DNA of 64,000 nucleotides from a virus (Duplodnaviria; Caudoviricetes). Numbering within the stretch: the stretch's first letter is position 1; the number at the start of each line of letters is the position of its first letter. This document shows positions 7,731 through 35,468 of this stretch, one piece after another. Under the pieces are notes generated by a model that was given only the letters and a program-made list of their open reading frames with translations, did not search any database and was not told where the DNA came from. Both the position numbers and the translations under genes were made by a program. The DNA lies in IMG/VR virus record IMGVR_UViG_3300028886_000036, positions 96,001-160,000 of that record. The stretch is one strand, 5' to 3'.

Positions 7731-10700
7731 TTGTCAACAATTTTAAGACACACTTTAGATGACACTGCAATCACTAAAGAGTTTCATGAAAGAATATTAA
7801 CTATAGATGATACTTGTGATTCTGCTGAAGTTAATAAAATTCCTGTAGCTAATCAGCATGGATATCTTGATAGAAGCTGGTTACAAGATTATAACAGTTT
7901 TAAAATTAGAGATCTTCAAACTGTTGTTAATGATTATGTTACTGATTTAGACGATATTGAATATGTTCATTTAATAAATTTGGGTAGTAGAATAAGTGTT
8001 CAATTAACCTCACCAGATGAAATTGATGAGAGTTTACCATATAGAAAAGCTTTAATCTATAGATTTGTAGTTAAAAGTAATTCAGATGATTATACTATTA
8101 CTTGGACTTCTAATAAGCCTAATTATAATATAGTTTGGAATACTTATTCAGAGTCAGCACCAGAGTTAGATGCTAATGGAACTTACTTTGAGTTTATAAG
8201 TACTGATAATGGCTTAACTTGGTACGGAACCAGCTCTAATATGACTGACTATGATATTCACGATTATTATAACAAAACTACATCTGATGATAGATTTGTT
8301 CACTATACTGATACAGAATTATTAGTACCAGATATGACTAATATGGCTGGTAAATATCTTGTTAATAATGGATTAGAGTCATATTGGGCAGATTATAAAA
8401 AGTTAATATATGTTAGTTATCCAAGTACTGATGTAACATCAATAACAGTTCCGCAAGAATATATTCAAGATGCTACTATTACAGATATTTTTAGAAATGG
8501 AGTCTTATTAACTGAATCTGATGACTATGCTAAAAATAATTCTACTGGTGTAATAACATTTACAGATATAATACGGGCTGGTGAAAAGATTTCTGTATTT
8601 ACAGAGACTAGTGTTAAAGCACATTCTTATAGCGCATTTAACAATCTTGAATTAACTAATAGTACTGCAGATACTCCAGATACATCTGATAATAGTGACA
8701 AGATCGCCACTACAGCATATGTTAATAATAAACTAGCCGAATATAATTTAAGTAGTACTTTGGCATCTTTAGATTCTCCAGCGTTTAATGGAATACCTAC
8801 TGCTCCAACTGCTGCTGCGGGTACAAATACTAACCAAATTGCTACTACAGAGTTTGTAAATACTGCTATAACAAATAATACAACAACTACTACAACTGCT
8901 ATAAACAACGCTATTAATAATTTAAAAGATAATGCGCCTTCTGATTTAGATACTTTAGGGAAAATTGCTACTGCTATTGATAATGATCCAAATTTCTCAA
9001 TCAATATTCATAATGAATTAGATAACAAATTAAATACTAGCATTTCAGAAGTTGGAGAAGGTAATGGAGTAGCCAATGTTTCTGAAGAAAACGGAAGTTT
9101 AATTATCACTAAAGTTAATTTTAGTTTAGCTGATCATGATCATGGAGATGCATATTTAGCAGCTACTCCTAATGTAGGATCTGGTGTTACCCCAATTTAT
9201 ACTGATGAAAGCGGACAGCTCGTTGCTTCTTCATCTACAGTTGGAGATTCTCAAACTCCAGTATATTTACAAGATGGTGTTTTAACAGCTGTTAGTGCAA
9301 GTATAAGTTTAGCAAATCACAATCACGATGATCTTTATACACCATTATCTGAAAATGTTGGGTCTAATATAAAGCATATTTATTCCAATGAGAATGGTCA
9401 ACTTGTTGAATCAGATGCTACTGTTGGAGATAATTTAACTCCTGTATATCTTGATAATGGTGAATTAAAAGTTATTTCTGGGAGCGTAAGTTTATCAAAT
9501 CATGACCACGATAACAAATATGCGCCACTTTCATTAAATGCTGGTTCTAATATAAAACATATTTATTCTGACGAAGAAGGGCATTTCCTAGAATCAGATG
9601 CTACTGTTGGTGACGAATTAACCCCAGTATATTTAAATAATGGAGAAATAACTGCAATTTCAGGTAGTGTAAGTTTATCCAATCATAATCACGACGATAG
9701 GTATACTCCGTTAGCTTCAGATGTAGGATCTGGAATCAATCCAATCTATACTGATGAGTTTGGTGGATTAATTAGATCTACTGCTACTGTTGGAGATGAT
9801 GTGACTCCTGTTTATTTAAACAACGGAGAAATAACTGCTTTCCCAGTTAGTGTAAGCTTATCTACACACGATCATGATGATAGATATGTTGCAATTAGAA
9901 CCAATGTTGGTTCTAACACTACACCGGTTTTCTTAAATGGAAATGGAGTAATAACTGCATCCTCTGCTTCGATAGGAAATAATTCAGTTCCTGTATATAT
10001 GGATAGTGGAAGTATTACAGCTTTTACTGAAAGTATAGGTAATGAAACCACTCCTGTATTTATTGATTCAGGAATAATTACAGCCTTCTATGCTGATATA
10101 GGAGATAATGATACTCCAGTATATATTGATGATGGATCTATAGTTAGTACAGGTAAGCACTTTAGCGATTACCTCCCATTAACTGGTGGAGAAGTTACTG
10201 GTACCTTAACATTAACTAATGAAACCTTACCATTAGTAATAGGAGAATCTTTGGCTGAAGATCACCTTGAAATAACTTCATCATCTATTCAAGCAAAAAC
10301 CGGAGATGTTGAATCTGATATATCAATAAACCCCGATGGTGGGGCTGTTACATTTGGTAATAGTGAAACAGGGACTGTTGTTATAAATAATGGAACAATT
10401 CATGCTGACAACATAGTCGGTGAAATAACAGGAGTTATTGATAGAGCTAATAAAGACAGTAATGGGGACATTATTGTAAATACGTATGCTCATTTGGATT
10501 CACCCGATTTAGTTGGAACACCAACTGCACCTACTGCAGAATCTGGCGATAACTCTAATACAATAGCTACTACTGCTTATGTAGATAATGCTATTTCAGA
10601 ATTAATAGATTCATCGCCAAATGCATTAAATACTTTAAATGAGCTTGCTTCAGCATTAAATAACGATTCTAACTTTGCTACTAATGTTTTTAACGCTATT

Positions 10701-13055
10701 AATAATAAAGCAGATAAATTCTCGGACGATATAAGGTTAATAGATACAACGCCTAATACTGGTTTAGATGAAACATTTACCGGAGAACGTTATGATAATA
10801 ATATTAGAGGTTATGCTGTTGATTCAACTAATCTAATTGGTACTATAAGATTTAGATCTAATGCCAATGCTGATGGAGATATAGTTAAATTTATAAGAAT
10901 GTATGTTGGCGATAGTTCTATTTCGGTTAATTCTAGATATGATCACGAAACAGAAACTACAACATATTATACAGAAACTCAAACTCCTGATTTATCAGAT
11001 AATAGTACTAAAATAGCTACTACTGAATTTGTTAAATCAGTAACAAACAATATATTACCAGATCAAACTAACAATGCTAATAAATATCTTACTACTGATG
11101 GTACAACTGCTTCTTGGGCAAGTGTTGATGCTTTGCCGTCTCAATCTGGAAATGCAGGTAAGTATTTAGTTACTAACGGTACAACTGCTTCTTGGGAGGA
11201 TATTACTAATACTGAAGTTAAGATTAGTTCTATACATTATCCTTCAGAAGGAGAAACTACAATTACCTTAACTGGCTCAGATGTACTTCCAAGTGATGTC
11301 AGTAAGTATGCTATAGCAGTATATAGAGATGGCATATATCTTAATCCAACTATTGATTATAATTTTAATCATAATACTAATGTACTAACTTTTACTGTTC
11401 CGTTTGAAATAGACGAGATAGTAACTGTAATATTCTCTTACATTAGTTCTGATACACAGGCTTCGTTAGATCTTGATATAGATGAATATGAGGCCGGAGA
11501 TAATATTACTTTTGTCAATAATCCTACTACTGGTAAAGTTACAATTAATGCAGCAGCAAGCACTGCAACTGATTCAACTAAATTAGGTGGAGTTGAAGCA
11601 TCTAATTATGCATTATTAAGTTCACCTGAATTAACAGGAACACCTACGGCTCCAACTGCTGCTGCAGGCACTAGTACTACGCAGATAGCCACAACAGCAT
11701 TTGTTACTGGTGCTATTTCAGATTTAGTTAGTGGCGCTCCTTCCACATTAGACACTCTGAAAGAAATTGCTGATGTATTAAATGATAGTAGTACTGGTAT
11801 AGGTGCAATTAATACCGCATTAGAAGGCAAACTTAATACAAATATCACTACGACCGGATCTGGTAATGCTATTACTGCAATTACTGATTCTAATGGCAAT
11901 ATTACTGCAACTAAAGGAAGTACTTTTAGTTTAAGTACACATAATCATACAGGAACATACTTACCCTTAAATAACGGTATTTCTGAAGGAAATTATATAG
12001 CTTTTAAAGGTAGTCATGAAGAAGGAGTAGCTCCTAGTGCTACCATAGAAAAGTATATTACTTTTAGAGATGCCAATAGCCATAATATGGGGTCTTTGTA
12101 TTTTACTTATAATACAGATATGTCCTCATCAATGGCATTAAGAGCGTATAAAACTACTATAGCAAATGATGCCGGCAAGCAAGGACAGTTAGGAATAGGA
12201 TGGACTGCTGATAATAAAGTCTACACAGTAGCGCCTACTCCTGCAACTTCTGATAATAGCACACAGATAGCTACTACAGCGTTTGTTAAAGCTCAAGGAT
12301 ATACAACCGCTTCTGGACATAATCATGATAGTGCTTATACAGCTAAAGCAGAGTCAAAAGGTTCAGCCACGCAAGGCATTTATACTGATAGTAATGGAGC
12401 CATCCAAGCTATGACTTATTCTTTGAATAAGACAGTTCCATCTGATGCCATATTTACGGATACTAATACTAAAGTTAACGTTACTCTTGGAACTACTACT
12501 AAAGCTTATTTACTTGGTACTTCAACTACCCCTACAAGTACTGCTGCCGGGGTTACTGCAATTTCAGACACAGGAGTATATTTAGATACTACTGCTGGTA
12601 TGTTAACTGCTACAACATTTAAAGGAAATTTAAGTGGTAATTTAACTGCAACAGCACCTACAGCTCCTACAGCAACAACTACTACTAACAACACTCAGAT
12701 AGCTACAACTGCTTATGTTAATAATAGATTTGCTAATTCTACAGAAAATGTTAAAGCCTTAACTTCTGCTGCAACAATTGCTATTAACCCAACAGAGAGT
12801 AGCTTATTTACATTAACATTATCTAGGAATGCTACTATTAATATATCAACAATTTCTAATGGATACTATACTACTAATGGTGCAGTAATTACATTATTTA
12901 TGCCAGCACATAATTATACTATCTCGTGGGGATCTAGTATTTCTTGGGTAGAAGGTAGTGCACCTGATTTAAGTGAAGGATATAATATAATAACATTTGC
13001 TTCACCAAATGGCGGTACAACTTGGTATGGTAGTGCCCTTTCAGTTAGTTCATAA
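7731..13055 (+). CDS. Large tail fibre protein (1774 aa)
   Basis: Multiple PTAPT...IATTA(Y/F)V fibre repeats, LDTL-x-E/K-IA-x-AI/L motifs, HxH repeats. Confidence 0.8.
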   Translation: MSTILRHTLDDTAITKEFHERILTIDDTCDSAEVNKIPVANQHGYLDRSWLQDYNSFKIRDLQTVVNDYVTDLDDIEYVHLINLGSRISVQLTSPDEIDESLPYRKALIYRFVVKSNSDDYTITWTSNKPNYNIVWNTYSESAPELDANGTYFEFISTDNGLTWYGTSSNMTDYDIHDYYNKTTSDDRFVHYTDTELLVPDMTNMAGKYLVNNGLESYWADYKKLIYVSYPSTDVTSITVPQEYIQDATITDIFRNGVLLTESDDYAKNNSTGVITFTDIIRAGEKISVFTETSVKAHSYSAFNNLELTNSTADTPDTSDNSDKIATTAYVNNKLAEYNLSSTLASLDSPAFNGIPTAPTAAAGTNTNQIATTEFVNTAITNNTTTTTTAINNAINNLKDNAPSDLDTLGKIATAIDNDPNFSINIHNELDNKLNTSISEVGEGNGVANVSEENGSLIITKVNFSLADHDHGDAYLAATPNVGSGVTPIYTDESGQLVASSSTVGDSQTPVYLQDGVLTAVSASISLANHNHDDLYTPLSENVGSNIKHIYSNENGQLVESDATVGDNLTPVYLDNGELKVISGSVSLSNHDHDNKYAPLSLNAGSNIKHIYSDEEGHFLESDATVGDELTPVYLNNGEITAISGSVSLSNHNHDDRYTPLASDVGSGINPIYTDEFGGLIRSTATVGDDVTPVYLNNGEITAFPVSVSLSTHDHDDRYVAIRTNVGSNTTPVFLNGNGVITASSASIGNNSVPVYMDSGSITAFTESIGNETTPVFIDSGIITAFYADIGDNDTPVYIDDGSIVSTGKHFSDYLPLTGGEVTGTLTLTNETLPLVIGESLAEDHLEITSSSIQAKTGDVESDISINPDGGAVTFGNSETGTVVINNGTIHADNIVGEITGVIDRANKDSNGDIIVNTYAHLDSPDLVGTPTAPTAESGDNSNTIATTAYVDNAISELIDSSPNALNTLNELASALNNDSNFATNVFNAINNKADKFSDDIRLIDTTPNTGLDETFTGERYDNNIRGYAVDSTNLIGTIRFRSNANADGDIVKFIRMYVGDSSISVNSRYDHETETTTYYTETQTPDLSDNSTKIATTEFVKSVTNNILPDQTNNANKYLTTDGTTASWASVDALPSQSGNAGKYLVTNGTTASWEDITNTEVKISSIHYPSEGETTITLTGSDVLPSDVSKYAIAVYRDGIYLNPTIDYNFNHNTNVLTFTVPFEIDEIVTVIFSYISSDTQASLDLDIDEYEAGDNITFVNNPTTGKVTINAAASTATDSTKLGGVEASNYALLSSPELTGTPTAPTAAAGTSTTQIATTAFVTGAISDLVSGAPSTLDTLKEIADVLNDSSTGIGAINTALEGKLNTNITTTGSGNAITAITDSNGNITATKGSTFSLSTHNHTGTYLPLNNGISEGNYIAFKGSHEEGVAPSATIEKYITFRDANSHNMGSLYFTYNTDMSSSMALRAYKTTIANDAGKQGQLGIGWTADNKVYTVAPTPATSDNSTQIATTAFVKAQGYTTASGHNHDSAYTAKAESKGSATQGIYTDSNGAIQAMTYSLNKTVPSDAIFTDTNTKVNVTLGTTTKAYLLGTSTTPTSTAAGVTAISDTGVYLDTTAGMLTATTFKGNLSGNLTATAPTAPTATTTTNNTQIATTAYVNNRFANSTENVKALTSAATIAINPTESSLFTLTLSRNATINISTISNGYYTTNGAVITLFMPAHNYTISWGSSISWVEGSAPDLSEGYNIITFASPNGGTTWYGSALSVSS
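9123..9900 (+). repeat. 183-bp (61 aa) internal tandem repeat, about 4.3 copies
   Basis: SL-x-x-HxH starts at 9123, 9306, 9489, 9672 and 9855. Confidence 0.85.
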
Positions 13056-13069
13056 GGGAGGTGAATAGA

Positions 13070-15709
13070 TTGGCTGATACTAATAAAACTAGAGTAACTA
13101 TTGAAATGATTAGTCCGACTATTTTATCCAAGGCAGAAATTGAAAGTTTATATGCTCCATTAATTTCTCCGGCATTATCTGGAACGCCAACTATTTCTAC
13201 AACTCCTGATAAGACAGATAATAGTCATAAAATAGCAGATACTGCATATGTTAAAAATAATTTAGCCGATTACTTACCATTAACTGGTGGAACTATTTCT
13301 AACAGTGGTGCCGTTAACGGATTAACAATCTATAGTCCAAAGAATAATTATGCTTTAAGATTTTCAAATGATGTAGATAAAGGAACTGCTCCTAGTTCTA
13401 ATAAGATACATGGAATAGAATTCTATGGATCAGACACTTCTGCAACTAATAAAAGATTATCCAATATAGATGCTGGTGTAACTACAGAAAATGCAAGTTA
13501 CATTACAATGGCAGCATATGGATGTAAAACTTCTACAGATACTACTAGATCTGTTATTGGGGCGTATGTAGATGCTAATGATAATATATACACATCTGCT
13601 CCAACTCCAGATACCAATGATAATAGTACTAAGATTGCTACTACAGCGTATACTAGAAAATATGCTGCAGCAACCTATCTACCCTTAACTGGTGGTACTA
13701 TAACAGGAAATATAGTCTATAAAAATGCTAATATAACCAGAGGAACAGCTCCTTCAGCATTAACTTATCATGATTTTGCATTTAAAGATTCAAATAATGA
13801 ATATATTGGATTACTTCGTACTGAATATGATACCAATAAATCATCTTTAGTTAGTTTAAAAACTTTTAATACAACAGTATCTGGTACTAGTAATAATATT
13901 GCTAGATTAGGAATCGGATGTGATGCTTCTGGGAATGCTTATACAGTTGCGCCTACTCCGGCTACAAATGATAACTCTACTAAAATAGCTACTACAGCAT
14001 ATACTAGAAGTTATACAAGTGCTACTTATTTACCATTGACAGGCGGAAATGTTTCTGGCAATATAAATAGAACGCATACTTATACAATAGGAACTGCACC
14101 TAGCTCAACTCAAGAATCAAAATATAGTTTTTTAGATTCAACTGGGCTTAATATGGGGACTGTTTATTTTACTTATAATACTGATAAATCGTCATTAATA
14201 TCTTTAAGAGCCTATAATACTACTACTAAAAATAGTAATGGTAACATTGGAATGCTAGGTATTGGAAGTAACTCTTCAGGAGCGGTGTATACTATAGCCC
14301 CTACCCCAGCTACAGCAGATAATAGTACTAAAATTGCTACTACTGCATATGTTAAAAGTAACTTAAATAGTTATTTACCATTAAGTGGTGGAGTTTTAAC
14401 TGGAGCTCTTCAGTGTAAAACTACTTATACTAATGGATCTGGAACAACATATACCAGTCCATTAATTCAATTTAACTCTTGCAATGCTAGTTATGGTAAT
14501 AATGTTGCTTTTGGTGGGTTAAGTAATACTATTGTTGGATCTGGCGAATCAGTAAATAGCCAGTTAACAGCTTTAGCTGGAGTTGAGGCAGAACAACTAT
14601 ATTTAGTTTCAGATTCAGTAATTAATTTCAAGGTTAATTGTAATACTTGGGCTAATGCTAAAACAATTACACTCAATACTAACGGGGAATTATCAGGATT
14701 AACCAAAGTAACTTCAACTAGCTTTGTAGGAACTCTAACTGGAAATTGCTCAGGAACATCTGCAAATGTAACTGGTACTGTTGCAATAGCTCATGGTGGA
14801 ACTGGAGCCACTACTAGATTAGAAGCTGTTAAAGCGTTAACCAATGAAAATGTTGGGACTGCGGCTACTCATTTCCTGACAATCACTACATCTTGGGGCA
14901 AGGCAGGATATAGTACAGTTGCTAATGTCAAGTCTATTTTAGGATTAGGAAGTGCCGCTTATACAGCTAGTACAGCTTATGCAGCTAGTAATCATAATCA
15001 TGACTCTACTTATCTGAAATTATCTGGTGGAACTATGACAGGTCAGTTGGTAATTAATAAAAATACAGGTCTTTCTGCTACAGCAGCAAATGCGTGCGCT
15101 TTAGTTATTGGTGGTACTCAAACTGCAGCCCATATAGAGATAGATCCTAATGAGATACAGGCTAAATCTAATGGTACTACTGCTACTGCATTATATCTTA
15201 ACAATGGTGGTGGAACAGTATATTTATCTAACGGAACAGCTATTTCAGCAGCTAATGGTACATTTACAGCAACTAAAATAGTTGGAGCTTATTATGCTGA
15301 CTATGCCGAATGGTTCCCTCGTGGCGAGGAAACAGAACCCGGTGATGTTATTGTATTAGATTTAGATTCTGATAAAGAACAATATATTAAATCTAGTAAA
15401 GATAATAAAAAGGTTGTTGGTGTTCATTCTGATAATTATAGCCATATAATAGGTGGTGAGCAAGCTCCTGAAGGAATTGATCACAAAGAATATAATGAGC
15501 CAAAGTATATTCCAGTAGCTTTATGTGGTAGAATTGAAACTAAATTTATAGGCGCAGCTAAAAAGGGAGATTATGTTGTTCCTTCTGATATACCTGGCGT
15601 AGCTAGAAGTTATAAAGAAACGGATAATCCTTTATCTGTATTTGGTATGCTGGTTGAAGAAGATAATTTAGTTGATACAATAAGAAGGTTAAAGGTTAAA
15701 TTAAAATAA
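13070..15709 (+). CDS. Tail fibre protein with C-terminal peptidase_G2-like intramolecular chaperone
   Basis: YLPLTGG and DNSTKIATTAY repeats; ADYAEWF...VVGVHSD...PVALCGR; TTG 13070 follows a GGGAGGTGA RBS. Confidence 0.8.
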   Translation: MADTNKTRVTIEMISPTILSKAEIESLYAPLISPALSGTPTISTTPDKTDNSHKIADTAYVKNNLADYLPLTGGTISNSGAVNGLTIYSPKNNYALRFSNDVDKGTAPSSNKIHGIEFYGSDTSATNKRLSNIDAGVTTENASYITMAAYGCKTSTDTTRSVIGAYVDANDNIYTSAPTPDTNDNSTKIATTAYTRKYAAATYLPLTGGTITGNIVYKNANITRGTAPSALTYHDFAFKDSNNEYIGLLRTEYDTNKSSLVSLKTFNTTVSGTSNNIARLGIGCDASGNAYTVAPTPATNDNSTKIATTAYTRSYTSATYLPLTGGNVSGNINRTHTYTIGTAPSSTQESKYSFLDSTGLNMGTVYFTYNTDKSSLISLRAYNTTTKNSNGNIGMLGIGSNSSGAVYTIAPTPATADNSTKIATTAYVKSNLNSYLPLSGGVLTGALQCKTTYTNGSGTTYTSPLIQFNSCNASYGNNVAFGGLSNTIVGSGESVNSQLTALAGVEAEQLYLVSDSVINFKVNCNTWANAKTITLNTNGELSGLTKVTSTSFVGTLTGNCSGTSANVTGTVAIAHGGTGATTRLEAVKALTNENVGTAATHFLTITTSWGKAGYSTVANVKSILGLGSAAYTASTAYAASNHNHDSTYLKLSGGTMTGQLVINKNTGLSATAANACALVIGGTQTAAHIEIDPNEIQAKSNGTTATALYLNNGGGTVYLSNGTAISAANGTFTATKIVGAYYADYAEWFPRGEETEPGDVIVLDLDSDKEQYIKSSKDNKKVVGVHSDNYSHIIGGEQAPEGIDHKEYNEPKYIPVALCGRIETKFIGAAKKGDYVVPSDIPGVARSYKETDNPLSVFGMLVEEDNLVDTIRRLKVKLK

Positions 15710-15732: not shown

Positions 15733-16848
15733 TTGAAAACTTATGAAAATGAAAGACATTTTTTAAGAAGAAATATAGACACTATTTTTTTAATGATGGG
15801 AAATGAATGCAATCTTAATTGTAGATATTGCTTACAGCATCCTTTAGTGGAACATCCGATTTCTCACGAAATAAATCCAGATATATACTATTTTATTGAG
15901 CAAGTTTGTAGGGAGAATATTCATCTTCCTTTAGATCTTCGTTTTTGGGGAGGAGAACCTTTAGTTTTTCTCCCCAATATTAAAAATGTAGTATATGAAA
16001 TAGAACAAAGAGATTTGCCAGTATCATTTAGTACAATGAGTAATGGTAAATTAGTAACTGAAGAATTAATAGAATATTTTAAAGAACATAACTTTAACTT
16101 TGCTATTAGTTGGGATGGAAGAAATAGTATAAAGACTAGAGGATATAATGCTTTTGAAGATAAGAAAGATATATTATTTCAGATGCCACATCTTTGTATA
16201 AGTGCTGTATTAAGTGCTTATGCATATCCTAAACAAATCTGTGAAGATTTTCAACAGCTAGATAATGAATATATGGAAAAAACTGGATACCACATTGGAA
16301 TGAATGTAGATGACATATTTAATACCGGAGATCTACCAGAAGATCTTTTAAATTTTGATTATGACAAGATAATATCTGAAATGATTGAGCTAACTAGCAT
16401 TTTTATAGAAGATAGACTCAACAATAATATGCCACCAGAACATTATGCTATAAACCATTATATTGGAAATATCTATGATTCTGTTAAGCATTTTTATAGT
16501 GCTGGAGACGATGCTACCTGGAATAATATCTGGTGTTGCTGCGGTAATGGTTATACAACTTTAAATCTTGGTATAGATGGAACATTATATCCATGTCATA
16601 ATACTAGTCATAGTGTAGGAAATATTAAAGATTCATATTTTCGTTATCTTAAAAATGTAATTAAGTATGATACTACATTTAGGCACCATTATGATAATAC
16701 GTGTAACGATTGCCCAGCAATAAGTTATTGTCATGGCGGATGTAAGTTAGTGTCTGATGAGAATAGGAATAAAACATATTGTAATTTAAAAAAAGCTATA
16801 GTTCTGCCTGTAATTCAGATGCTTACTGAATTAGGAACAGAACTATAA
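15733..16848 (+). CDS. Radical SAM/SPASM-domain enzyme (peptide-maturase-like)
   Basis: CNLNCRYC, WGGEP, SWDG; SPASM CG-x8-DG-x-LYPC...CNDC-x5-C-HGG-C...C. Confidence 0.92.
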   Translation: MKTYENERHFLRRNIDTIFLMMGNECNLNCRYCLQHPLVEHPISHEINPDIYYFIEQVCRENIHLPLDLRFWGGEPLVFLPNIKNVVYEIEQRDLPVSFSTMSNGKLVTEELIEYFKEHNFNFAISWDGRNSIKTRGYNAFEDKKDILFQMPHLCISAVLSAYAYPKQICEDFQQLDNEYMEKTGYHIGMNVDDIFNTGDLPEDLLNFDYDKIISEMIELTSIFIEDRLNNNMPPEHYAINHYIGNIYDSVKHFYSAGDDATWNNIWCCCGNGYTTLNLGIDGTLYPCHNTSHSVGNIKDSYFRYLKNVIKYDTTFRHHYDNTCNDCPAISYCHGGCKLVSDENRNKTYCNLKKAIVLPVIQMLTELGTEL

Positions 16849-16866
16849 ACAAGGGGGAGTTGTTTT

Positions 16867-17271
16867 ATGGCTAAAAATGGTACTATAAATAAAACAACTT
16901 TTACCGATCAATCTAATATACAAGGCGGAACTTTAATATTAGCTAAAGCTATTCATGTTGCTGAATTGCGAACTGCTATTGGTAAACTTGAGCAATACTC
17001 TGTAAATGTAGATAATTGTGGTCAATGTGCTTGTCAGAATAAGTGTACTTGTCAATCCGATAAAGAATGTAGATGTGAATCATGTCAAGACGCATGCACA
17101 GAATGTACTTGTCAATCTGATAAGCAGTGTAGATGTGAATCATGCCAGGATGCGTGTATTGAATGTTCTTGTGAACAAGTTCGTTCTAATTCGTGTTCTA
17201 ATTGTGGATATAATAGTTGCGATTCTTGCTCAGGTGGAGACGATTGGGGAAGTAGCGGAGGTTATGAATAA
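16867..17271 (+). CDS. Cys-repeat precursor-like protein A (putative rSAM target)
   Basis: Cys-free 50-aa N-terminus, then 21 Cys; AAGGGGGAG RBS. Confidence 0.75.
   Translation: MAKNGTINKTTFTDQSNIQGGTLILAKAIHVAELRTAIGKLEQYSVNVDNCGQCACQNKCTCQSDKECRCESCQDACTECTCQSDKQCRCESCQDACIECSCEQVRSNSCSNCGYNSCDSCSGGDDWGSSGGYE
17044..17163 (+). repeat. 60-bp (20 aa) tandem repeat, 2 copies
   Basis: CTCQSDK(E/Q)CRCESCQDAC(T/I)E twice, with mostly synonymous DNA differences. Confidence 0.9.
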
Positions 17272-17712
17272 ATGGCTACTTGGACAGATTCTACATTAAG
17301 TAATAAAATAAAAATTAAAGCTGTTCATGTCAATGAAGTTAAAAACGCAATTCAATCTCTTATAGATAAAGCTAAATTGTCATCTACAGTATCAATAGGC
17401 ACTATAAACACTAGTAAAAAAGTACTTGAATCTAATATTTCAAAGTTACAAAAATCTATAAATGCATTAGAAACCAACTTTTCTGGAAATTGTGCAAAAA
17501 CTCAATGTACTTCAAAATGTGAATCTTGTCAAGATTCGTGTACACAATGTAAGTGCCAATCTGATAAAGAATGTAAGTGCCAATCTTGTCAGGATACTTG
17601 TAAACAGTGTATATGCCAAACGGACAAATGTCAAAAATGCCAATCGCAATGTCAATGTTATGATGGATGCTATGACGGTTGCAGTGGCGGAGATGATTAT
17701 GGTTCTGAATAG
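17272..17712 (+). CDS. Cys-repeat precursor-like protein B (putative rSAM target)
   Basis: 19 Cys in the C-terminal half; shares KA(I/V)HV-x-E and CSGGDD(W/Y)GS with protein A. Confidence 0.75.
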   Translation: MATWTDSTLSNKIKIKAVHVNEVKNAIQSLIDKAKLSSTVSIGTINTSKKVLESNISKLQKSINALETNFSGNCAKTQCTSKCESCQDSCTQCKCQSDKECKCQSCQDTCKQCICQTDKCQKCQSQCQCYDGCYDGCSGGDDYGSE

Positions 17713-17738
17713 CTAGTATAGAGAGAAGGTCGGTTATT

Positions 17739-18308
17739 ATAATATCTTTAAAACCCTGGTATTCTAAACTACATTTAAAAGTATTAGATACCATAAATAA
17801 AGACATTTATAAGTTTATATATCACATTTCATTAAGAAACGACTATCTTGGTCTTGTTATGAAATGGGATCAATCATGTATTGAAATAATAAAAGAAACA
17901 TTGTTATTTAAAGATATATTTTATAATATAGAGATTTCTAGTATTGAGGATTATGAAAGTATTAATCTTTCATGTAAAGGAAATACACACAAGTTTCATT
18001 ATTTTTGTGAAGTATCTAAATATAATGATCTAAAAAGTATCCCATGTTTAGGGGTATATATGAGCAATGGAAAGTTTCCTTATAATGTTAGGGAATCCAT
18101 AATAAATAAGGGTGAAAATCTTAAAAGAGCTATGTTTAAGTTTAGTTCTATAGAAGATTATATTAGGTTAAATGATTATACTTTATTTTTAGATACTGAA
18201 GGAAATGTATATGACAATGTTCTTTTTATAAACAATGTATGCAATATTTTCAATGACAACATTGATGTAAAGTTGTTTGACTACATAAGAAAGAGAGTGA
18301 GCGTATGA
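17739..18308 (+). CDS. Degenerate radical-SAM-like accessory protein (no CxxxCxxC); probable ATA/ATT start
   Basis: Frame open from 17709. The extension gives INKDIYKFI (compare INPDIYYFI in rSAM1); TLFLDTEGNVY resembles the SPASM entry. The ORF track starts at 17859. Confidence 0.55.
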   Translation: MISLKPWYSKLHLKVLDTINKDIYKFIYHISLRNDYLGLVMKWDQSCIEIIKETLLFKDIFYNIEISSIEDYESINLSCKGNTHKFHYFCEVSKYNDLKSIPCLGVYMSNGKFPYNVRESIINKGENLKRAMFKFSSIEDYIRLNDYTLFLDTEGNVYDNVLFINNVCNIFNDNIDVKLFDYIRKRVSV

Positions 18309-19096
18309 TTAAAGTTATTAATAACACTTCATTAGTGTATGATATTACAAGAATACCACACATTAATCAGTATAGAGACATAACATTATATGCGTCAGAA
18401 ACAGAGGATCAGTTATATATAAAAGTTGCTTTTATATCTGGTACAGAAGCTTTTGAAAGCTATATCTTGGAGAAGACTTTTGATAAGAATGCTATTAAAG
18501 GTACATTATGTGATATAACTTTTATTAGATCTACATCATATTCGCCTTACAATATTTTTGTAATTGGTAGGAAGTTTAATCGTGTAGATGCTCCTTTAAG
18601 AAATCCAACTAATGAAAGAATATTTTCTTTTGCAACATTATATATAGCTAATAACGGCGATGTCTACATTATACCTAGGTGGAGACTTACACACACCAGT
18701 AATAAGTTTGATGGATGTGATTATTCTGAAGTTGCATTTAATGGTAGAACTCCACAAGAAATATTATTTGAGTTAGTACCAGAAACGGTAGATATCACTA
18801 AAGCGTGGTATATCAAAAAGGAAACTCTTGGTGACTCTATTGATACTAGAACATCTGTGACCTATTTAGAGAACCAAGTAGATGTTTTGTATAAGATTAT
18901 TGAAAAGCTTATAGCTGCTACAAATATAGATGTATCAGAATATGCTGACATTCTCGATGCTGTTGATAAAACTTCAGTAATGAATATTAACAGTATTGAA
19001 AAGATTGTAAATAAGATTAATAGAGATAAGAAATATATTAGAACTAAACAGAAAGAGTATCACGATAAATTAAAAGCAGCTGGGTTTGATGCCTAG
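18305..19096 (+). CDS. Hypothetical protein in the rSAM cassette with helical/coiled-coil C-terminus
   Basis: 263 aa, overlaps both neighbours. Confidence 0.75.
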   Translation: MIKVINNTSLVYDITRIPHINQYRDITLYASETEDQLYIKVAFISGTEAFESYILEKTFDKNAIKGTLCDITFIRSTSYSPYNIFVIGRKFNRVDAPLRNPTNERIFSFATLYIANNGDVYIIPRWRLTHTSNKFDGCDYSEVAFNGRTPQEILFELVPETVDITKAWYIKKETLGDSIDTRTSVTYLENQVDVLYKIIEKLIAATNIDVSEYADILDAVDKTSVMNINSIEKIVNKINRDKKYIRTKQKEYHDKLKAAGFDA

Positions 19097-20009
19097 TTTA
19101 AAATTAAGAGTTGGAAGTAAGTGTAATCAGAACTGTAAGTTTTGTCATTCACATAAAGGGGATGAATATGTATTCAATCCTAAAATCATCCCCTTTATTA
19201 AATATAATGATTTTGATAATGTAACTTATGGCGGTGGGGAACCATTAGTATATTGGGATATTATTAAACTGATTGTTGAGTCTATACCAGACATTCATTA
19301 CACTATAGTTACAAACGGATCATTATTTAATGAGGAAATGTTAGAGTATTGTACTAAATACAACATTAGAATATACATTTCATTGACAGATTACACAAAT
19401 ATTTCCGACTATACCTATACATTAATAGGTAAAGTGCCACAACTTGGGACCGCAAAACTATATGATGGAACTAAAACTTTTCAAGAACTGGATAAATTAG
19501 TTGAAAACTTTAAGTTAAAAACTGGTAGAGATATAAATAGCTATTGGTATAACTTAATGCACACTACATGCAACAATCCTAGTATGGTTTACACTGATGA
19601 GATGAAAAAGCATTATATAGATAATATGAAAGAAAGGCTTAAGGATACATTATATTCTAAAAAAATAGGTTATCCTACTAAATGGTCATGCATGTCACAA
19701 GATCTTCACACATTTTTAGTAGGGAATAGAATTCAAGGATGCAATACATATAATCATACAACAATTAGTTTAGATGGCAGGTTTATGCCGTGCTCATATA
19801 TAGCAGAATATGGTGCTTCGATAGAAGATTTATATAATTATGATATTCCAAAGTTAAAATCTGAAAAGTGCTATGATTGTAATTTAGTATATAAGTGTCA
19901 TTCTTGTTATAAAACTTTAAACAATGATCAATGTGAAATTTATAATGAATTGTATAGTTATGTTGAGAAAATTTGTAACGAATACAATTTAGATATAGAT
20001 AAATTATAA
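19086..20009 (+). CDS. Second radical SAM enzyme with SPASM-like C-terminus
   Basis: CNQNCKFC, GGGEP, VTNG; GC...SLDGRFMPC...CYDC-x5-CHSC...C (start 19086 or ATG 19089). Confidence 0.9.
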   Translation: MMPSLKLRVGSKCNQNCKFCHSHKGDEYVFNPKIIPFIKYNDFDNVTYGGGEPLVYWDIIKLIVESIPDIHYTIVTNGSLFNEEMLEYCTKYNIRIYISLTDYTNISDYTYTLIGKVPQLGTAKLYDGTKTFQELDKLVENFKLKTGRDINSYWYNLMHTTCNNPSMVYTDEMKKHYIDNMKERLKDTLYSKKIGYPTKWSCMSQDLHTFLVGNRIQGCNTYNHTTISLDGRFMPCSYIAEYGASIEDLYNYDIPKLKSEKCYDCNLVYKCHSCYKTLNNDQCEIYNELYSYVEKICNEYNLDIDKL

Positions 20010-20025: not shown

Positions 20026-23000
20026 TTGCCCGAAAAATTAAAAGAAAACTTATATAACTATCCAAACAACCCTAATCCAATTAACCCAGATTATCCTTTA
20101 GAAGCTATTTTAACTGAAGCACATATGCAAAATACTATTACTTCAGATATGGTATCTATAGTAGCTGCAAAAGGAAAAATCCCTATTGGAAATCCAGAGG
20201 ATAGTTATAAACTTGATAGTAGTTGGTTGGGAATAGATCCTGATGCATCTTATGCAGTAGACGCTACTACCACTAGAAAAGGTATTATAGAAATAGCTAC
20301 AGAAGCTGAAGCTAAAACTGGTACAGACACAGAAAGGGCAGTTACTCCAGCGGGTGTTAAAGCTAGTATTTTACAAAACACTCCTAAAGCTACTACAGCA
20401 CAATCTGGCGTAGTTACATTAACTAATCTTATAGATAATTCTCAAGATAAAGCTGTTACACCATATGCTATACAAAACTATTTAAGCAGTAGTAATTTTT
20501 CAAAAGCTTCATATACTGGATATGGGATAACCAAATTTGCTAGCACTACAAATGTTGCAAAAGTATTAACTGATTCAGCTACTAAACCAATTAATACACT
20601 TAAAAATGATACTAACTATAAAGAACAAGCTGTAGATCCATATTCATTGTATAATTATGTTTCTAATAATACAATGTATTTTAATGTTAACAAACAGTCT
20701 GTTGGTGGTATTATTTTTAGAGATTTAAGTGAAGACGATACAGCTACTAGAGTAACTGCTACTGAAAGAGCTAGACTATACGTTAATAAAGATAATGGCA
20801 ACACTTATTTAAAAGTTAATGGCAGAACTGCTACACTTTTAGATAATGCAGGTAATAGCGCTTTTCCTGTAAGCATTACAGCAAGTACGTCTGTAATTAC
20901 TCCATTAATTAAACAGTCAAACGGTAATGCTCCTAAATTAGGAACTAAAAAAATTGGAGATACAAATAAGCCTATTTATATTGCTAGCGATGGAACTATA
21001 TCAGAATGTAATAATATAGATACTGTTAATAACGCTACTAACGCTACTAATGCCACTAATGCTGATAAGGCTATTAAAGACGGTAACGGTAATATAATTA
21101 CAAGTACTTATCTTCCATTAGCTGGTGGAACTATGACTGGGCCAATTAAGGCAAAAACAACTTTTACGGATGCTAACGGGGCAGAAAAAAGCCATACGTA
21201 TAGTATTATAGATTTTAAAACAAGTGGGACAACAGCTGGAAATAATGTTGCATTTGGTGGTAACAGTAACGCCATTTTTGGCTCTGGTGAGTCTTTTATA
21301 AATCAATTAAATGCATTAGACGGAGTTGAAGCTGAAGATCTTTATTTGGTGTCTGATGGAAATATCCATGTAAAGATGAGCGAAAACAACTTTGCTAATT
21401 GCAGAGAAATATTTATAGATAAAAAATATGGTCAGATAACTACACCTAGCAATATTTTAACTAAATCTCCTGCTGTAGTTAGAGGCACTGCTCCAAGCTC
21501 TAATATAGAATTTTCTACATTTGATTTTAGAGATTGTGGAACAAGTTCCGGTAATCATAGAATAGGATTAGTTTCCACAGTTTATAAAACAGATAAATCC
21601 TCTTATACTGGTATGTATGCGTACGATACCACAGTTGCTACAGGTAATTCACCAGCAGATTGGTGGTTAGGTATTGGTTGCGATAAAAATGCTAAAGTTT
21701 ATACTCACGCTCCAACACCAGCAGCTACATCAAATGATACTAATATAGCCACTACAGCATTTGTTAAAACAGCTATATCTAATAATAACTCTAGCTATTT
21801 GCCATTGGCTGGAGGAACTATGACTGGACAGATTACCTCAAGTGTATCTTCCGCTTATTGGGTTGATATAGCGGCAAAGAGTTCAATAATTGCTTCAAAT
21901 AATACTTCTGGGGCTTATGGATGGTTAAGTGGTTATACAAAGAGTTATAGAGTTATGCTTGGTGCGTATCCCGGAAACGACGAGATGATACAGCTTTATT
22001 CATATACTAAAGCAAGAGCATCTGCAGGCGGAAAAACTAATAATACACCAACTAGCTATTTTACTTGGAATGCTGCAACTGGAGAAATCAGAAATTCTGG
22101 AGGAGCAACACTTTCAAGTACATTAAACATTGCACCAGGCGCAGCTAATAATTACTCCGAAGGAATTAGAATACAAAAAGCTACTAATAATTGGGCAACT
22201 ATAGTATTAGGATGTAAAGCAGGGACTGTTAACGGCAATCCAGCAACTAATGGCGGATGGTTTATTGGTAATAATACTTCTAATCAACTTGTTATAAATA
22301 ATACAGATTCTAGCACTGGAAAAGCTTCTATTTGGATAGATACTGATAAAAAAGTAACTATGACTGGAGCATGTAATGTAGTAGGCACTATAACTCAAAA
22401 TGGAACTGCAGTGTCTCTAAACGGTCATACACATTCTTATGCCGCTTCAAATCATAGTCACAGTGATTATTTACCATTAGCTGGCGGAACTATGACTGGT
22501 AATATTACTAGAAAAAACACATCAGTCACTAGAGGAACAGCTCCATCTTCTAATCAATATATGTCAACATATTATCAAGATTCAAAGGGGAATGCCATAG
22601 GATGCTTTGAAAGTGGATACTATAAAGATAAATCCGCTAAAACAGGTATGTATACTTATAATACTACAGTAGCATCTGGAGGAAGCGTAGGAAGTGTAGG
22701 AGTAGGTTGTGATAAAAATGGTAATGTTTATACATGGGCACCTACACCAGCATCTGGAGATAATAGCACAAAAATAGCCACAACAGCATTTGTTAAATCC
22801 GCTTTAGCTTCTGTAAAAGATGAAGTAGTTTCTAAAAAAACTGGATACTTTTATATAGGTGATGTAATTATACAGTATGGATATTATAATGGTCAAAAAG
22901 GTGAAGGAGACCAATATAATAAAGATAAAAACGAAATTCAACTTTTAGTTCCCATAAAGACAGTATATAGCTTAATGGCTACTAGTAGATCTAGAATTAA

Positions 23001-23166
23001 TAGATGGGATAAGGGTGGATGCATGATTACTAACAATGAGCTTAGATACGATAAAAATGGAAAGTTAGTTGCTTTTAAAATTAGTTGTGGAGATTATCAA
23101 GGATCTAGGGCTGGTGATAATACCGATTGGGGAGCTTATTGGATGGTAATAGGAACTAATTCATAG
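20026..23166 (+). CDS. Tail fibre protein
   Basis: ATTTRKGIIEIAT...AVTP fibre repeat, YLPLAGGT repeats, C-terminal VIIQYG...YWMVIG tip domain. Confidence 0.8.
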   Translation: MPEKLKENLYNYPNNPNPINPDYPLEAILTEAHMQNTITSDMVSIVAAKGKIPIGNPEDSYKLDSSWLGIDPDASYAVDATTTRKGIIEIATEAEAKTGTDTERAVTPAGVKASILQNTPKATTAQSGVVTLTNLIDNSQDKAVTPYAIQNYLSSSNFSKASYTGYGITKFASTTNVAKVLTDSATKPINTLKNDTNYKEQAVDPYSLYNYVSNNTMYFNVNKQSVGGIIFRDLSEDDTATRVTATERARLYVNKDNGNTYLKVNGRTATLLDNAGNSAFPVSITASTSVITPLIKQSNGNAPKLGTKKIGDTNKPIYIASDGTISECNNIDTVNNATNATNATNADKAIKDGNGNIITSTYLPLAGGTMTGPIKAKTTFTDANGAEKSHTYSIIDFKTSGTTAGNNVAFGGNSNAIFGSGESFINQLNALDGVEAEDLYLVSDGNIHVKMSENNFANCREIFIDKKYGQITTPSNILTKSPAVVRGTAPSSNIEFSTFDFRDCGTSSGNHRIGLVSTVYKTDKSSYTGMYAYDTTVATGNSPADWWLGIGCDKNAKVYTHAPTPAATSNDTNIATTAFVKTAISNNNSSYLPLAGGTMTGQITSSVSSAYWVDIAAKSSIIASNNTSGAYGWLSGYTKSYRVMLGAYPGNDEMIQLYSYTKARASAGGKTNNTPTSYFTWNAATGEIRNSGGATLSSTLNIAPGAANNYSEGIRIQKATNNWATIVLGCKAGTVNGNPATNGGWFIGNNTSNQLVINNTDSSTGKASIWIDTDKKVTMTGACNVVGTITQNGTAVSLNGHTHSYAASNHSHSDYLPLAGGTMTGNITRKNTSVTRGTAPSSNQYMSTYYQDSKGNAIGCFESGYYKDKSAKTGMYTYNTTVASGGSVGSVGVGCDKNGNVYTWAPTPASGDNSTKIATTAFVKSALASVKDEVVSKKTGYFYIGDVIIQYGYYNGQKGEGDQYNKDKNEIQLLVPIKTVYSLMATSRSRINRWDKGGCMITNNELRYDKNGKLVAFKISCGDYQGSRAGDNTDWGAYWMVIGTNS

Positions 23167-27244: not shown

Positions 27245-29194
27245 GTGCTGGCTTATACATATAAAGGAATACAAAATGTTACTAACCAGAATGTAGACCC
27301 TACTAATAAAACATATTTTATAGAGCATGCTGAAACATCGGCTAATCAAGTTATAGTAAATCAAGAAAGAAATATTAGACTTAATGAAGTATTAGCAGAC
27401 TTAGAAACCAGATTATCTGGTGATTCTATGTTACCTTCTCAAGCCGGTAATAGTGGTAAGTTTTTAACTACAAATGGATCATCTATGAGGTGGGCAGTTG
27501 TTGATGCCTTGCCTTCACAAACTAATAATGATGGTAAGATATTATATACTAATGGTACTAATTCTTATTGGGCTACTCCATTAGCTTTAACCTCTACAGA
27601 ATATCCAAAAGTATCTGTTGATAGTATAGGTTCCTATGGAAGTAGTAATGAAGCTGCTAGAGCAGATCATAGACATCCAATACCTGTTTATCATTTAGAA
27701 AGTTATAGCGTAGCTATTGGCGGAGAAACTGAAATGTATTTAACTGAACAACAGTATCCATCAAATGATAGACCTGTTGGATTCCATTTATATAGGAATG
27801 GGTTATTATTAACTCCAGATGTAGACTATACATTTGATGTTACTAATAGAAAGATTACATTTCAGAAAGCTTGTGAAGCTAGAGAAAATATTATTATAGT
27901 ATTAGGATATTTGCAAGGATATAATTCTCAGCAAACAGAGAGTAATATAGAGAATATATTAAATCAGATTTTAACTACTACAGATTTGCCATTGATGGAT
28001 GGAGAAGTTGCTATTGGTAATTCTACTAAAGCAGCTAATGCATTACACAGGCATCCTACAGATACTAGTAGAGCTCCTATATTCTCACCAAATTTTACAG
28101 GAACTCCTACATTAACTACTTCTCCAGGTCTTAATGATAATTCAAATAAAATAGCTACTACAGCATATGTAATGAATCAATTTGATCATTACAGTAGTAA
28201 TGTTGTTGATAATATCATACCAGATCAGACAGGTAAAGCTAATCTAGTTTTATCTACTGATGGAGAACATTTAAGATGGGTTCAAAATAAAAGTGCTCAA
28301 GAGCTTCCTGATTATAGTACTGCAACTTCAGGAGATGTTTTAGGTATCGATGAAGAAGGTCATCTTCATTGGACTGAAGTATCTTCACCCACTGGAATTC
28401 CAGATACTATTACAGCAGAAGCTAATGAAGTATTATCGTTAGATAGTAATAAAGAACCGATATGGAGACCTATATTAGAAATTCCTAGTATTTCACCACA
28501 GTTGCATGATAAAGTTCTTAGTAATGATGGATATGAATTATTTTGGAAGGATAATCCAAAGTTAAATGTTACATCAACAGTTGTTCCTGCTAATAGTGCT
28601 CCTAGAGCATATATTGGAGTTTCAGAAGAAGCTGCTAGAGCTGACCATGTGCATTTAAGTGATGAAACAAAGGCTGATATAGATTCACCTGAATTTACAG
28701 GCACTCCAACATCACCTACACCTAGTTTAAATGATAATTCCACTAAACTTGCTACAACAGAATTTGTTAATAGTAAAATTTCAAGCAGTGTTACAGAACT
28801 ACTTAATACTATAGATTATGATAATTTTATATTAAATGATGATTCAAGAGTTAGAACACTGACCAATGTTGTAGAAAAACTACAAGATCTTGGTAATCTT
28901 GATGAAACTATAAATGAAGTTACTATTGACTGGAGTTTGGGCAATGTTGCACAGTTAATGTGTACCAATAACCTTAGTATTAACTTTGAAGTTAATAGTA
29001 CTCAAAATAGCAATTTTAGAGAAGTTACACTTATTTTATATGCTGCTGATAGCTATATGATTGAATGGCCAGAAAATGTTCACTGGAACGATGTGAATGC
29101 ACCCACATTTGAGACAGTGATGTCTATAATTAAGTTTGTTACTATGAATAATGGTGACGAATGGTATGGAAGTGTATTTGGTAACTTCAATTAA
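27245..29194 (+). CDS. Tail fibre-like protein
   Basis: AARADH-x-H, SP-x-FTGTPT and DNS-x-K-x-ATT motifs; C-terminal W-YG domain like 7731. Confidence 0.75.
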   Translation: MLAYTYKGIQNVTNQNVDPTNKTYFIEHAETSANQVIVNQERNIRLNEVLADLETRLSGDSMLPSQAGNSGKFLTTNGSSMRWAVVDALPSQTNNDGKILYTNGTNSYWATPLALTSTEYPKVSVDSIGSYGSSNEAARADHRHPIPVYHLESYSVAIGGETEMYLTEQQYPSNDRPVGFHLYRNGLLLTPDVDYTFDVTNRKITFQKACEARENIIIVLGYLQGYNSQQTESNIENILNQILTTTDLPLMDGEVAIGNSTKAANALHRHPTDTSRAPIFSPNFTGTPTLTTSPGLNDNSNKIATTAYVMNQFDHYSSNVVDNIIPDQTGKANLVLSTDGEHLRWVQNKSAQELPDYSTATSGDVLGIDEEGHLHWTEVSSPTGIPDTITAEANEVLSLDSNKEPIWRPILEIPSISPQLHDKVLSNDGYELFWKDNPKLNVTSTVVPANSAPRAYIGVSEEAARADHVHLSDETKADIDSPEFTGTPTSPTPSLNDNSTKLATTEFVNSKISSSVTELLNTIDYDNFILNDDSRVRTLTNVVEKLQDLGNLDETINEVTIDWSLGNVAQLMCTNNLSINFEVNSTQNSNFREVTLILYAADSYMIEWPENVHWNDVNAPTFETVMSIIKFVTMNNGDEWYGSVFGNFN

Positions 29195-34864: not shown

Positions 34865-35167
34865 TTAATCGCTTATCTTAACTATATGCTCAGATAGTAT
34901 ACTAAAACCACAAGTATTATTCTGATCAGTTATCAAATTAAATTCACAGAAGTCACAATTTTCATCACAGCAAGCATTCAGATTAAATCTACTACTAAAT
35001 ATATGTTCTATTAATTCATTATTATCTATTCTAGAATAGAATGAACACCTTCCAGATCCCTTTCTAAACAAGTTACACAATCCACATGTAGAATGACTAA
35101 AGCATGTATTATTAATTATAGAATACATCATATAAGTTAAAGTTTTTAAGGATTGTAAGTTATGCAT
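34865..35167 (-). CDS. Small Cys-rich paralog
   Basis: NTC-x5-CGLC-x9-C, then a second C..CDFC..C cluster. Confidence 0.7.
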   Translation of the reverse strand: MHNLQSLKTLTYMMYSIINNTCFSHSTCGLCNLFRKGSGRCSFYSRIDNNELIEHIFSSRFNLNACCDENCDFCEFNLITDQNNTCGFSILSEHIVKISD

Positions 35168-35468
35168 TTCTATAGGTTATCTTAGAAGCAAAATCTCCAA
35201 ATCCACAAAATCCGCCTGGCCTACTTATTTCACAATCTTCACAACTGATATCGTTAGTACAGCTATTGACTAACTGATTAATCATTGGACTAACAGTTTT
35301 ATCCAAATGAATTATAAACTGTGAAATATGTCTTTCTCTTAAGCTACAGTCTCCATTCGACAATGCTATAGGACAATCTCCCTTGTAGCATTTAGATGCT
35401 GCTTTACATATGTTAATCAATATAATACACATCAGCAATCTAGATTTCTTAGATGCCAGTGAAATCAT
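35160..35468 (-). CDS. Small Cys-rich paralog
   Basis: NIC..C..C..C and C-x5-CEDC-x8-C. Confidence 0.7.
   Translation of the reverse strand: MISLASKKSRLLMCIILINICKAASKCYKGDCPIALSNGDCSLRERHISQFIIHLDKTVSPMINQLVNSCTNDISCEDCEISRPGGFCGFGDFASKITYRNA

Follow-up and report, generated by a model that had tools for sequence, protein, structure and literature searches.

Why would a phage keep two radical S-adenosylmethionine (SAM) enzymes and two cysteine-rich proteins among its tail-fibre genes? The question is raised by positions 15733-20009 of a 64,000-nucleotide stretch of viral DNA, hereafter the window, which comprises bases 96001-160000 of a 275,466-bp virus record (IMGVR_UViG_3300028886_000036) that is complete according to CheckV. 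Six genes follow one another there on the + strand: rSAM1, encoding a radical-SAM enzyme with a SPASM domain; CysA and CysB, encoding the Cys-rich proteins; orf4; orf5; and rSAM2, encoding a second radical-SAM enzyme. The answer proposed here, to which we give an even chance, is that they form a conserved tail-module cassette for post-translational protein modification, the enzymes of which would crosslink a tail-associated protein. The stretch is present in bovine gut metagenome runs, and is therefore assigned to a jumbo phage from an anaerobic gut habitat. A DNA search with the cassette gave no match among GenBank phages, and no description of such a cassette was found in a literature search.

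A conserved cassette in phage tail modules

The original prediction, made by a model from the sequence alone, described six packed genes on one strand, lying between tail-fibre genes and separated by no terminator. All of this held. The six open reading frames (ORFs) are present at the predicted coordinates, PHROGs families match the genes on both sides (Table 1), and no terminator-like site was found on the + strand in 15733-20009. The intergenic gaps across the cassette measure -11 to +23 nt, counted with orf4 extended as described below. For each of the six genes, independent assemblies contain relatives (40-76% identity) in an unchanged order; the genes are therefore real and not chance frames.

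The original prediction had allowed that homologues of the enzymes might usually occur without Cys-repeat neighbours. Instead, every rSAM1 orthologue (at least 40% identity) that is readable in context, which excludes L016 and L017 as too short, has CysA- and CysB-type genes directly 3' of it, inside a tail or fibre module. Orthologues at 40-49% identity were found in L003, L011, L018, L020, L022 and L024-L026. L003 (293 kb) and L011, contigs of jumbo-phage size reached via CysB relatives, keep the six-gene order between fibres. Distant CysB-type proteins, sought by an exhaustive profile search, led to three further contexts, namely the phage L018 (218 kb), the sipho-type prophage L020, and L022, a contig on which four radical-SAM genes lie; in all three an rSAM1 orthologue (37-49% identity among them) follows a fibre gene and stands directly before CysA and CysB. 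GTDB genomes gave close relatives of rSAM1 (43-45% identity) only in Negativicutes prophages, those of Megasphaera sueciensis TMW 2.2488 (L025), Acidaminococcus fermentans (L026) and an Acidaminococcus metagenome-assembled genome (MAG). CysA and CysB are present in all three, and the next-best matches are at 26% identity or less. The IMG/VR scan with rSAM1 returned no relative, and that with the rSAM2 alignment one distant match only. The cassette lies between fibres in jumbo phages, and between the tape-measure protein (TMP)-Dit-fibre genes and the endolysin in sipho-type prophages. The linkage of rSAM1 to CysA and CysB spans phages that share little else, and the layout of the cassette is real, conserved and specific.

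The middle genes vary with the cassette type: orf4 and orf5 in the clade of the present phage, a Hint-like 131-aa protein and another protein of 273 aa in L018, L020 and L025. The Hint match of the stand-alone 131-aa protein is below the cut-off (E 2.8e-4). In a close relative (L014:11797-13323), rSAM2 is replaced by an ORF of more than 509 aa with tandem radical-SAM cores (CNCNCKYC, CNNNCIYC), and the contig ends inside this fused double ORF. In L022:6923-12657, the four radical-SAM genes (363, 324, 347 and 322 aa) are arranged around CysA and CysB, an orf5-like gene lies upstream of rSAM1, and a 295-aa protein is possibly orf4-like.

In a rumen metatranscriptome library (run X3), one contig bridges 7500-19882 with no differences. 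Contig depths were uneven in that library (5-73) and flat (~41-45) in a DNA run that is possibly the source of the window itself. The pattern fits transcription of the cassette together with the fibre genes, and is taken as a hint only, because transcription cannot be read from contigs and the library may contain carried-over DNA.

Table 1. Genes of the cassette, fibre genes of the window, and Cys-ended tail-module proteins of relatives (positions are those of the window unless preceded by a contig label)
Feature	Position	Strand	Basis or motif
Tail-fibre gene	7731-13055		PHROGs phrog_2631, E 1e-72
Tail-fibre gene, 882 aa, directly 5' of the cassette	13061-15709	+	phrog_2631 (E 2e-8) and phrog_4209
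rSAM1, radical-SAM/SPASM, 371 aa	15733-16848	+	CNLNCRYC
CysA, 134 aa, 21 Cys	16867-17271	+	
CysB, 146 aa, 19 Cys	17272-17712	+	
orf4, ~190 aa, predicted radical-SAM fold without cluster cysteines	17736-18308 (probable start)	+	fold model
orf5, 263 aa, helper candidate	18305-19096	+	
rSAM2, second radical-SAM enzyme, 307 aa	19086-20009	+	CNQNCKFC
Tail-fibre gene, 1046 aa, directly 3' of the cassette	20026-23166	+	phrog_910 tail collar fibre, E 2.6e-9
Tail-fibre gene	27245-29194		phrog_2631, E 5e-17
Tail-module protein ending in CxCxC(G/S)DD	L025:5595-6218, L020:6190-6813, L024:2855-3718, L026:4658-5314		end NCNCDCGDDM

The fibre gene that follows the cassette has fibre motifs in common with the upstream fibres. 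A genome-wide Cys scan also picked out several small ORFs with 8-12% Cys on the minus strand of the window, at 34865-36087 and 43139-44456; their sequences show no relationship to CysA or CysB, and the GDD tail is missing.

The two radical-SAM enzymes and their companions

As predicted, rSAM1 is a radical-SAM/SPASM protein, by motif and by profile scores. Its CxxxCxxC motif is formed by C26, C30 and C33, and the seven SPASM cysteines are C270, C288, C324, C327, C333, C337 and C350; both sets are invariant in 6 orthologues. The radical-SAM core begins at about residue 20, with no N-terminal extension ahead of it. The SPASM models PF13186 and TIGR04085 scored 26.2 bits (cut-off 21.5) and 43.8 bits (cut-off 27), Fer4_12 scored 24.3 bits (cut-off 22), and PF04055 scored 26.0 bits, just under its cut-off of 29.5. 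The best full-length match is the PapB family (NF047865, E 1e-26, residues 15-340 on positions 2-319 of a 330-residue model), and further matches include nif11 maturases and models of anSME (E 1e-14). The nearest curated families are peptide or protein modifiers, several of which form Cys thioethers; assignment to cofactor or nucleotide families, an outcome that had been named as damaging to the original prediction, was not what was found.

The second radical-SAM gene was likewise borne out. In rSAM2, CxxxCxxC is formed by C13, C17 and C20, and PF04055 scored 48.7 bits (cut-off 29.5, E 1e-12). To this is added a SPASM-type motif of seven cysteines that had not been flagged: C219, C236, C262, C265, C271, C274 and C283, with the pattern CX16C...CX2CX5CX2C...C, invariant in 3 sequences. 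No SPASM hidden Markov model matched, Pfam giving the radical-SAM core only, and the SPASM assignment is that of the motif. Both enzymes fall in phrog_1802 (rSAM2 over residues 2-299), and rSAM2 is 30% identical over its full length to the 347-aa radical-SAM protein of L022 (L022_347).

That the two enzymes serve cofactor, nucleotide or sugar modification, with the Cys-rich genes as unrelated neighbours, is very improbable. Such a role would agree with the N-terminal matches of rSAM2 to viperin-like, MoaA and QueE models (E 6e-9 to 2e-7), but these are weak, cover the generic radical-SAM core only and stay far below the cut-offs. Both enzymes carry auxiliary cluster motifs of the SPASM type, typical of peptide modifiers, and their linkage to CysA, CysB and tail modules is conserved across unrelated phages.

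The original prediction started orf4 at the ATG at 17859. This start was abandoned: the 40 codons upstream are open and conserved, align with the N-termini of full-length relatives (188-193 aa), and contain no ATG, GTG or TTG. An ATT or ATA (17736-17744), 7-10 nt 3' of the sequence GAGAAGG, is probably the start, at about 17736.

The orf4 protein had been described as radical-SAM-like without CxxxCxxC, a likeness that stands by fold and fails by sequence. There is a single invariant cysteine, C91, and no CxxxCxxC motif. The AlphaFold2 model (predicted local distance difference test, pLDDT, 87; predicted template modelling score, pTM, 0.85) has a core in which beta and alpha elements alternate, and after it a hairpin and a helix. 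With this model, Foldseek returned anSME and BtrN at a probability of 0.96-0.97, and VIA-align placed BtrN, SuiB, anSME, ChlB and TigE on top with Z 8.1-8.6, only slightly above generic triose-phosphate isomerase (TIM) barrels (7.8 or less). The scans gave no sequence match of orf4 to any family. Because hhalign against rSAM1 and rSAM2 gave a probability below 1%, the radical-SAM likeness is a property of the fold model. The closest solved folds are anSME and the twitch enzyme BtrN (Z 8.3-8.6); unlike these, orf4 lacks cluster-binding cysteines, and no sulfatase is encoded nearby. From the model, orf4 is probably a cluster-less radical-SAM paralogue. It cannot cleave SAM, as the cluster-binding cysteines are missing.

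The scans of the six products gave no family match for orf5, an Atlas search returned nothing usable, and its own structure model was poor. Its C-terminal helical part (YLENQVDVLYKII...) recurs in L003, L011, L014 and L022, with a BLASTP E of 2e-9 against a 264-aa protein of L022. The similarity to gp029 of phage JWF is weak (BLASTP E 0.015), and none was found to the 277-aa protein of L018. In the mechanism proposed below, orf4 and orf5 would be non-catalytic helpers that hold or present the substrate.

Heads and tails of CysA and CysB

CysA and CysB are paralogues, each with a Cys-free head and a Cys-rich tail. The 50-aa head of CysA contains one helical unit (FTD...KAIHVAELRTAIGKLE) and meets the tail at the junction NVDNCG. 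That of CysB, of 73 aa, contains two units, the second degenerate, with the junction FSGNC; this second unit can be aligned by hhalign with that of CysA (probability 88%, E 3e-6). The CysA tail has 21 Cys in 84 aa, with a 20-aa repeat in 2.2 copies (17044-17172), and ends in CSGGDDWGSSGGYE. The CysB tail has 19 Cys in 73 aa and ends in CSGGDDYGSE, the two proteins having the ending CSGGDD(W/Y)GS in common. No signal peptide-like N-terminus is visible in the cassette proteins. Neither protein matches a target family of NCBIfam (at E 0.1 or better) or Pfam, NCBIfam giving nothing for CysA and weak unrelated matches only for CysB. The targets of the CXXX-repeat system were also considered, and CysA and CysB fit neither their models (TIGR04114, TIGR04117) nor their Cys at every fourth residue.

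In the tails of 18 relatives, Cys makes up 27% of the residues, Gln 15.5% and Ser 15%; hydrophobic residues are nearly absent, and Gln directly follows nearly half of the Cys. The number of residues between successive Cys in the 18 sequences is 1 in 62 cases, 2 in 94, 3 in 49 and 4 in 54. The repeat number of the tail differs between close relatives.

Such a composition, with CxC and CxxC spacing and no evident acceptor motif, would also be expected of tails that bind metal, in the manner of metallothioneins or Fe-S proteins, or that form disulfides, while the radical-SAM enzymes act elsewhere, for example on another fibre residue. The terminal CxCxCGDD that CysA and CysB have in common with a tail-module protein of relatives, described below, could be a shared metal site. 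We consider this account unlikely. The rSAM1 orthologues always lie directly beside the Cys genes, all of the nearest enzyme families have Cys-containing peptides or proteins as substrates, and disulfides would be unlikely to last in the rumen.

A profile of the head retrieved 1736 proteins at E 0.001 or better, most of them with three tandem copies of a motif of about 35 aa, (F/W)TD...KAVHxxELRxAI, which no Pfam family covers. The model of a 118-aa protein with three copies (pLDDT 85.6, pTM 0.75) shows a three-helix bundle and arms that are extended. In P0075, three units are followed on a single chain by a Cys-heptad tail with a CTCNCNY-type repeat. Judging from the models, the Cys-free heads seem to be units of a widespread domain that folds, and not leaders to be discarded. 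QhpD, a radical-SAM/SPASM enzyme, installs several Cys-to-Asp/Glu thioethers in QhpC, a small protein that is kept as a structural subunit. The resemblance of the heads to units of a folded domain fits protein modification of this kind better than a classic leader-and-core RiPP (a peptide made on ribosomes, then modified post-translationally).

More than a thousand bacterial and phage proteins (among them P0012-P0158) have the motif in triplicate, and it is often C-terminal on large immunoglobulin (Ig)-domain proteins. Several head-motif proteins are Cys-rich in part (P0060, P0067, P0093, P0143).

As the one unit of CysA and the two of CysB make three, a CysA:CysB heterodimer that rebuilds the bundle is suggested. 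A complex prediction with CysB(1-78) and CysA(1-55) scored 0.44, the best of 3 controls reaching 0.02. The runs agree in at least 83% of contacts, with a partner pLDDT of at least 61. Of 80 solved complexes, 58 reach the mark of this test, as do 2 of 110 mismatched pairs; scores of 0.60 or below include only 7 of the 80 solved complexes, and both mismatches that passed. The predicted complex therefore points weakly to pairing of the heads.

The fate and significance of the product

In the reading that we favour, CysA and CysB would be made in the host cytoplasm, and their heads would probably pair into a three-helix bundle. Their hydrophilic Cys tails would be, most likely, the substrates of rSAM1 and rSAM2, which most likely abstract hydrogen from a neighbouring residue and link it to the Cys sulfur, as in sactipeptide- or ranthipeptide-type thioethers. 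The product would be a multiply stapled knot resisting reduction and proteases. Since no protease or exporter was matched, it is presumed to stay a protein, which most likely joins the neighbouring fibres during assembly (as tip, joint or decoration) and exits the cell at lysis. The anaerobic bovine gut habitat would suit oxygen-sensitive enzymes, and thioether links rather than disulfides. The most detailed version, in which CysA and CysB form a heterodimeric fibre part with a three-helix head and a thioether-knotted tail that is built into the virion, a cluster-less radical-SAM paralogue serving as holder, is put forward tentatively, as a possibility rather than an expectation.

The main argument for a role in the virion is that Cys-run tails occur on tail proteins of relatives. 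In L020, L024, L025 and L026, a tail-module protein of 207-287 aa ends in CxCxC(G/S)DD, as CysA and CysB do, and in the Negativicutes prophages it is encoded two genes before the fibre. The common ending hints at a single site for all three proteins. The cultured Achromobacter phage JWF encodes gp028 (L104:2670-4121), a fibre-like protein annotated with a T4 gp36-type hinge, in which NCNCDCNCNCS stands directly before a Hint domain (PF05203, E 3e-12). Behind its gene come that of gp029, weakly similar to orf5, and one for a radical-SAM/SPASM enzyme; the endolysin follows. L027:6330-7058 is similar. A Sutterella MAG has a JWF-type Cys run and a Hint-like start beside a radical-SAM gene. In P0101, a protein of the CysB type, the C-terminus is a fused part with a weak likeness to Hint (E 0.015, below the cut-off). 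In gp028, L027 and P0101 alike, a CxCxCxC run immediately precedes the first Cys of the Hint or Hint-like part. Self-cleavage at a Hint junction would leave a C-terminus formed by the Cys run, possibly as a thioester. In the paper on AchV4, a different Achromobacter phage, neither 'radical SAM' nor 'Hint' occurs. Cultured relatives are available in phage JWF and in the prophages of Megasphaera sueciensis and Acidaminococcus fermentans.

Alternatively, CysA and CysB could be matured without entering the particle, and be freed at lysis to act on competitors, receptors or defence, in the manner of a bacteriocin-like RiPP. An enzyme encoded beside a Cys-rich precursor is a RiPP hallmark, and the varying repeat number of the tails recalls multi-core precursors. 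This is nevertheless a doubtful account: no leader peptidase, exporter or immunity gene occurs in any cassette read, the heads resemble a folded domain and not a leader, and the cassette is always inside tail modules, where the tail motif of CysA and CysB also ends another protein and a similar Cys run occurs in the JWF fibre-like protein.

CysA, CysB, orf4 and orf5 might also be chaperones or scaffolds of fibre assembly that are absent from the finished particle, the radical-SAM enzymes modifying either them or the fibres. Genes adjacent to fibres often encode assembly chaperones. The C-terminal ~150 aa (YADYAEWFPRGEETEPGD...) of the fibre directly 5' of the cassette are kept at the end of the pre-cassette fibre in L003, L007, L018, L020 and L025, and weakly match an autocleaving intramolecular chaperone domain (PF11962, Peptidase_G2 IMC; E 0.019, 14.8 bits, below the cut-off of 25); no match was found among PDB sequences. 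The Hint domains after the Cys runs of relatives would also be in keeping with such a role. As a chaperone set, the cassette would be unusually costly, requiring four to six dedicated genes, two of them for Fe-S enzymes, and the JWF Cys run is within the fibre-like protein itself, so that this explanation is given little credence. The C-terminal domain of the fibre occupies 15263-15706 of the window, has the pattern AYY.DYAE.FP.GE..E.GD, and always ends the fibre just before the cassette.

Crosslinking of a tail-associated protein is best judged beside known systems. The original prediction of a RiPP-like system was right in that the nearest families are Cys-crosslinking maturases; it goes too far in that no maturase cut-off is reached, no RiPP recognition element (RRE) was matched and the heads are not leader-like. 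Its statement that no transporter, peptidase or immunity gene is present agrees with the scans, in which no such family matched any of the six products. The components of a classic RiPP cluster, namely an RRE-recognised leader, a peptidase and export, have no family match among these products either. PapB/PapA (freyrasin), CteB/SCIFF and CcpM resemble the cassette in setting a radical-SAM/SPASM enzyme beside short Cys-rich repeat substrates, and their Cys thioether crosslink is the chemistry that would be expected here. The cassette differs in lacking a matched RRE, leader peptidase and exporter and in its place in phage tail-fibre modules. Its candidate substrates, moreover, are of 100-165 aa with a foldable head, an irregular, CQ-biased Cys spacing and no CxxxD-type motif. 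QhpD and QhpC, of the gamma-subunit maturation of quinohemoprotein amine dehydrogenase, offer a parallel in that the modified protein stays a subunit and is not exported; however, the match of rSAM1 is mainly to the N-terminal core, no dehydrogenase genes are present, and the putative targets of the cassette are repeat-rich, far richer in Cys, and viral. The CXXX-repeat system (TIGR04114, TIGR04117, TIGR04115) likewise has Cys-repeat targets beside radical-SAM/SPASM maturases, but the Cys spacing in the cassette is 1-4 and not fixed, and TIGR04115 is not among the best 25 matches of rSAM1. By analogy, the best reading is that the cassette works like ranthipeptide, sactipeptide or QhpC maturation while being a member of none of those families.

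Several results weigh against the proposed crosslinking. rSAM1 scored 93.9 bits with the PapB model, against a cut-off of 340, and is thus not a member of that family; with QhpD, the second-best family (TIGR03906, E 1e-19), it scored 70.4 bits (cut-off 453), with the SCIFF maturase (TIGR03974) 62.6 (cut-off 425) and with CcpM (TIGR04068) 68.7 (cut-off 500). Every one of its matches to such families falls far short of the respective cut-off, so that rSAM1 cannot be counted in any curated family. Searches with family models, which could miss a remote RRE-like fold, matched neither an RRE nor another known domain for substrate recognition in the six products. The cysteines are irregularly spaced, an obvious fixed acceptor motif like CxxxD is lacking, and the arrangement would suit metal binding just as well. 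The head profile and P0025 gave nothing significant against PDB sequences, and the Foldseek search of the PDB with the P0025 model gave no match at E 0.001 or better, as for a fold without a solved relative; the signal for pairing of the heads stays weak. The contexts found via rSAM1 (L024-L026) are biased towards containing rSAM1. Within the clade of the present phage, L007 (281 kb) has a reduced cassette of CysB, orf4, rSAM2 and CysA, without rSAM1 and orf5; rSAM1 is therefore dispensable in some lineages.

The known cases of radical-SAM thioether chemistry are small exported peptides and a single enzyme subunit, QhpC. To our knowledge, the enzymatic stapling of a protein of the virus particle has not been described previously. 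If the proposal is correct, the cassette would be the first case in which a virus structural protein is crosslinked enzymatically by radical chemistry. The process would be widespread among phages that infect anaerobes, and would stand as a new class of virion maturation next to autocatalytic links of the HK97 type. It would provide a first functional context for the uncurated head domain, and new stapled scaffolds and enzymes for peptide engineering. For the phages themselves, it would mean that natural-product chemistry is borrowed to build or harden part of the host-recognition apparatus; in anaerobic guts, they would gain a substitute for disulfides that is proof against redox conditions and proteases.

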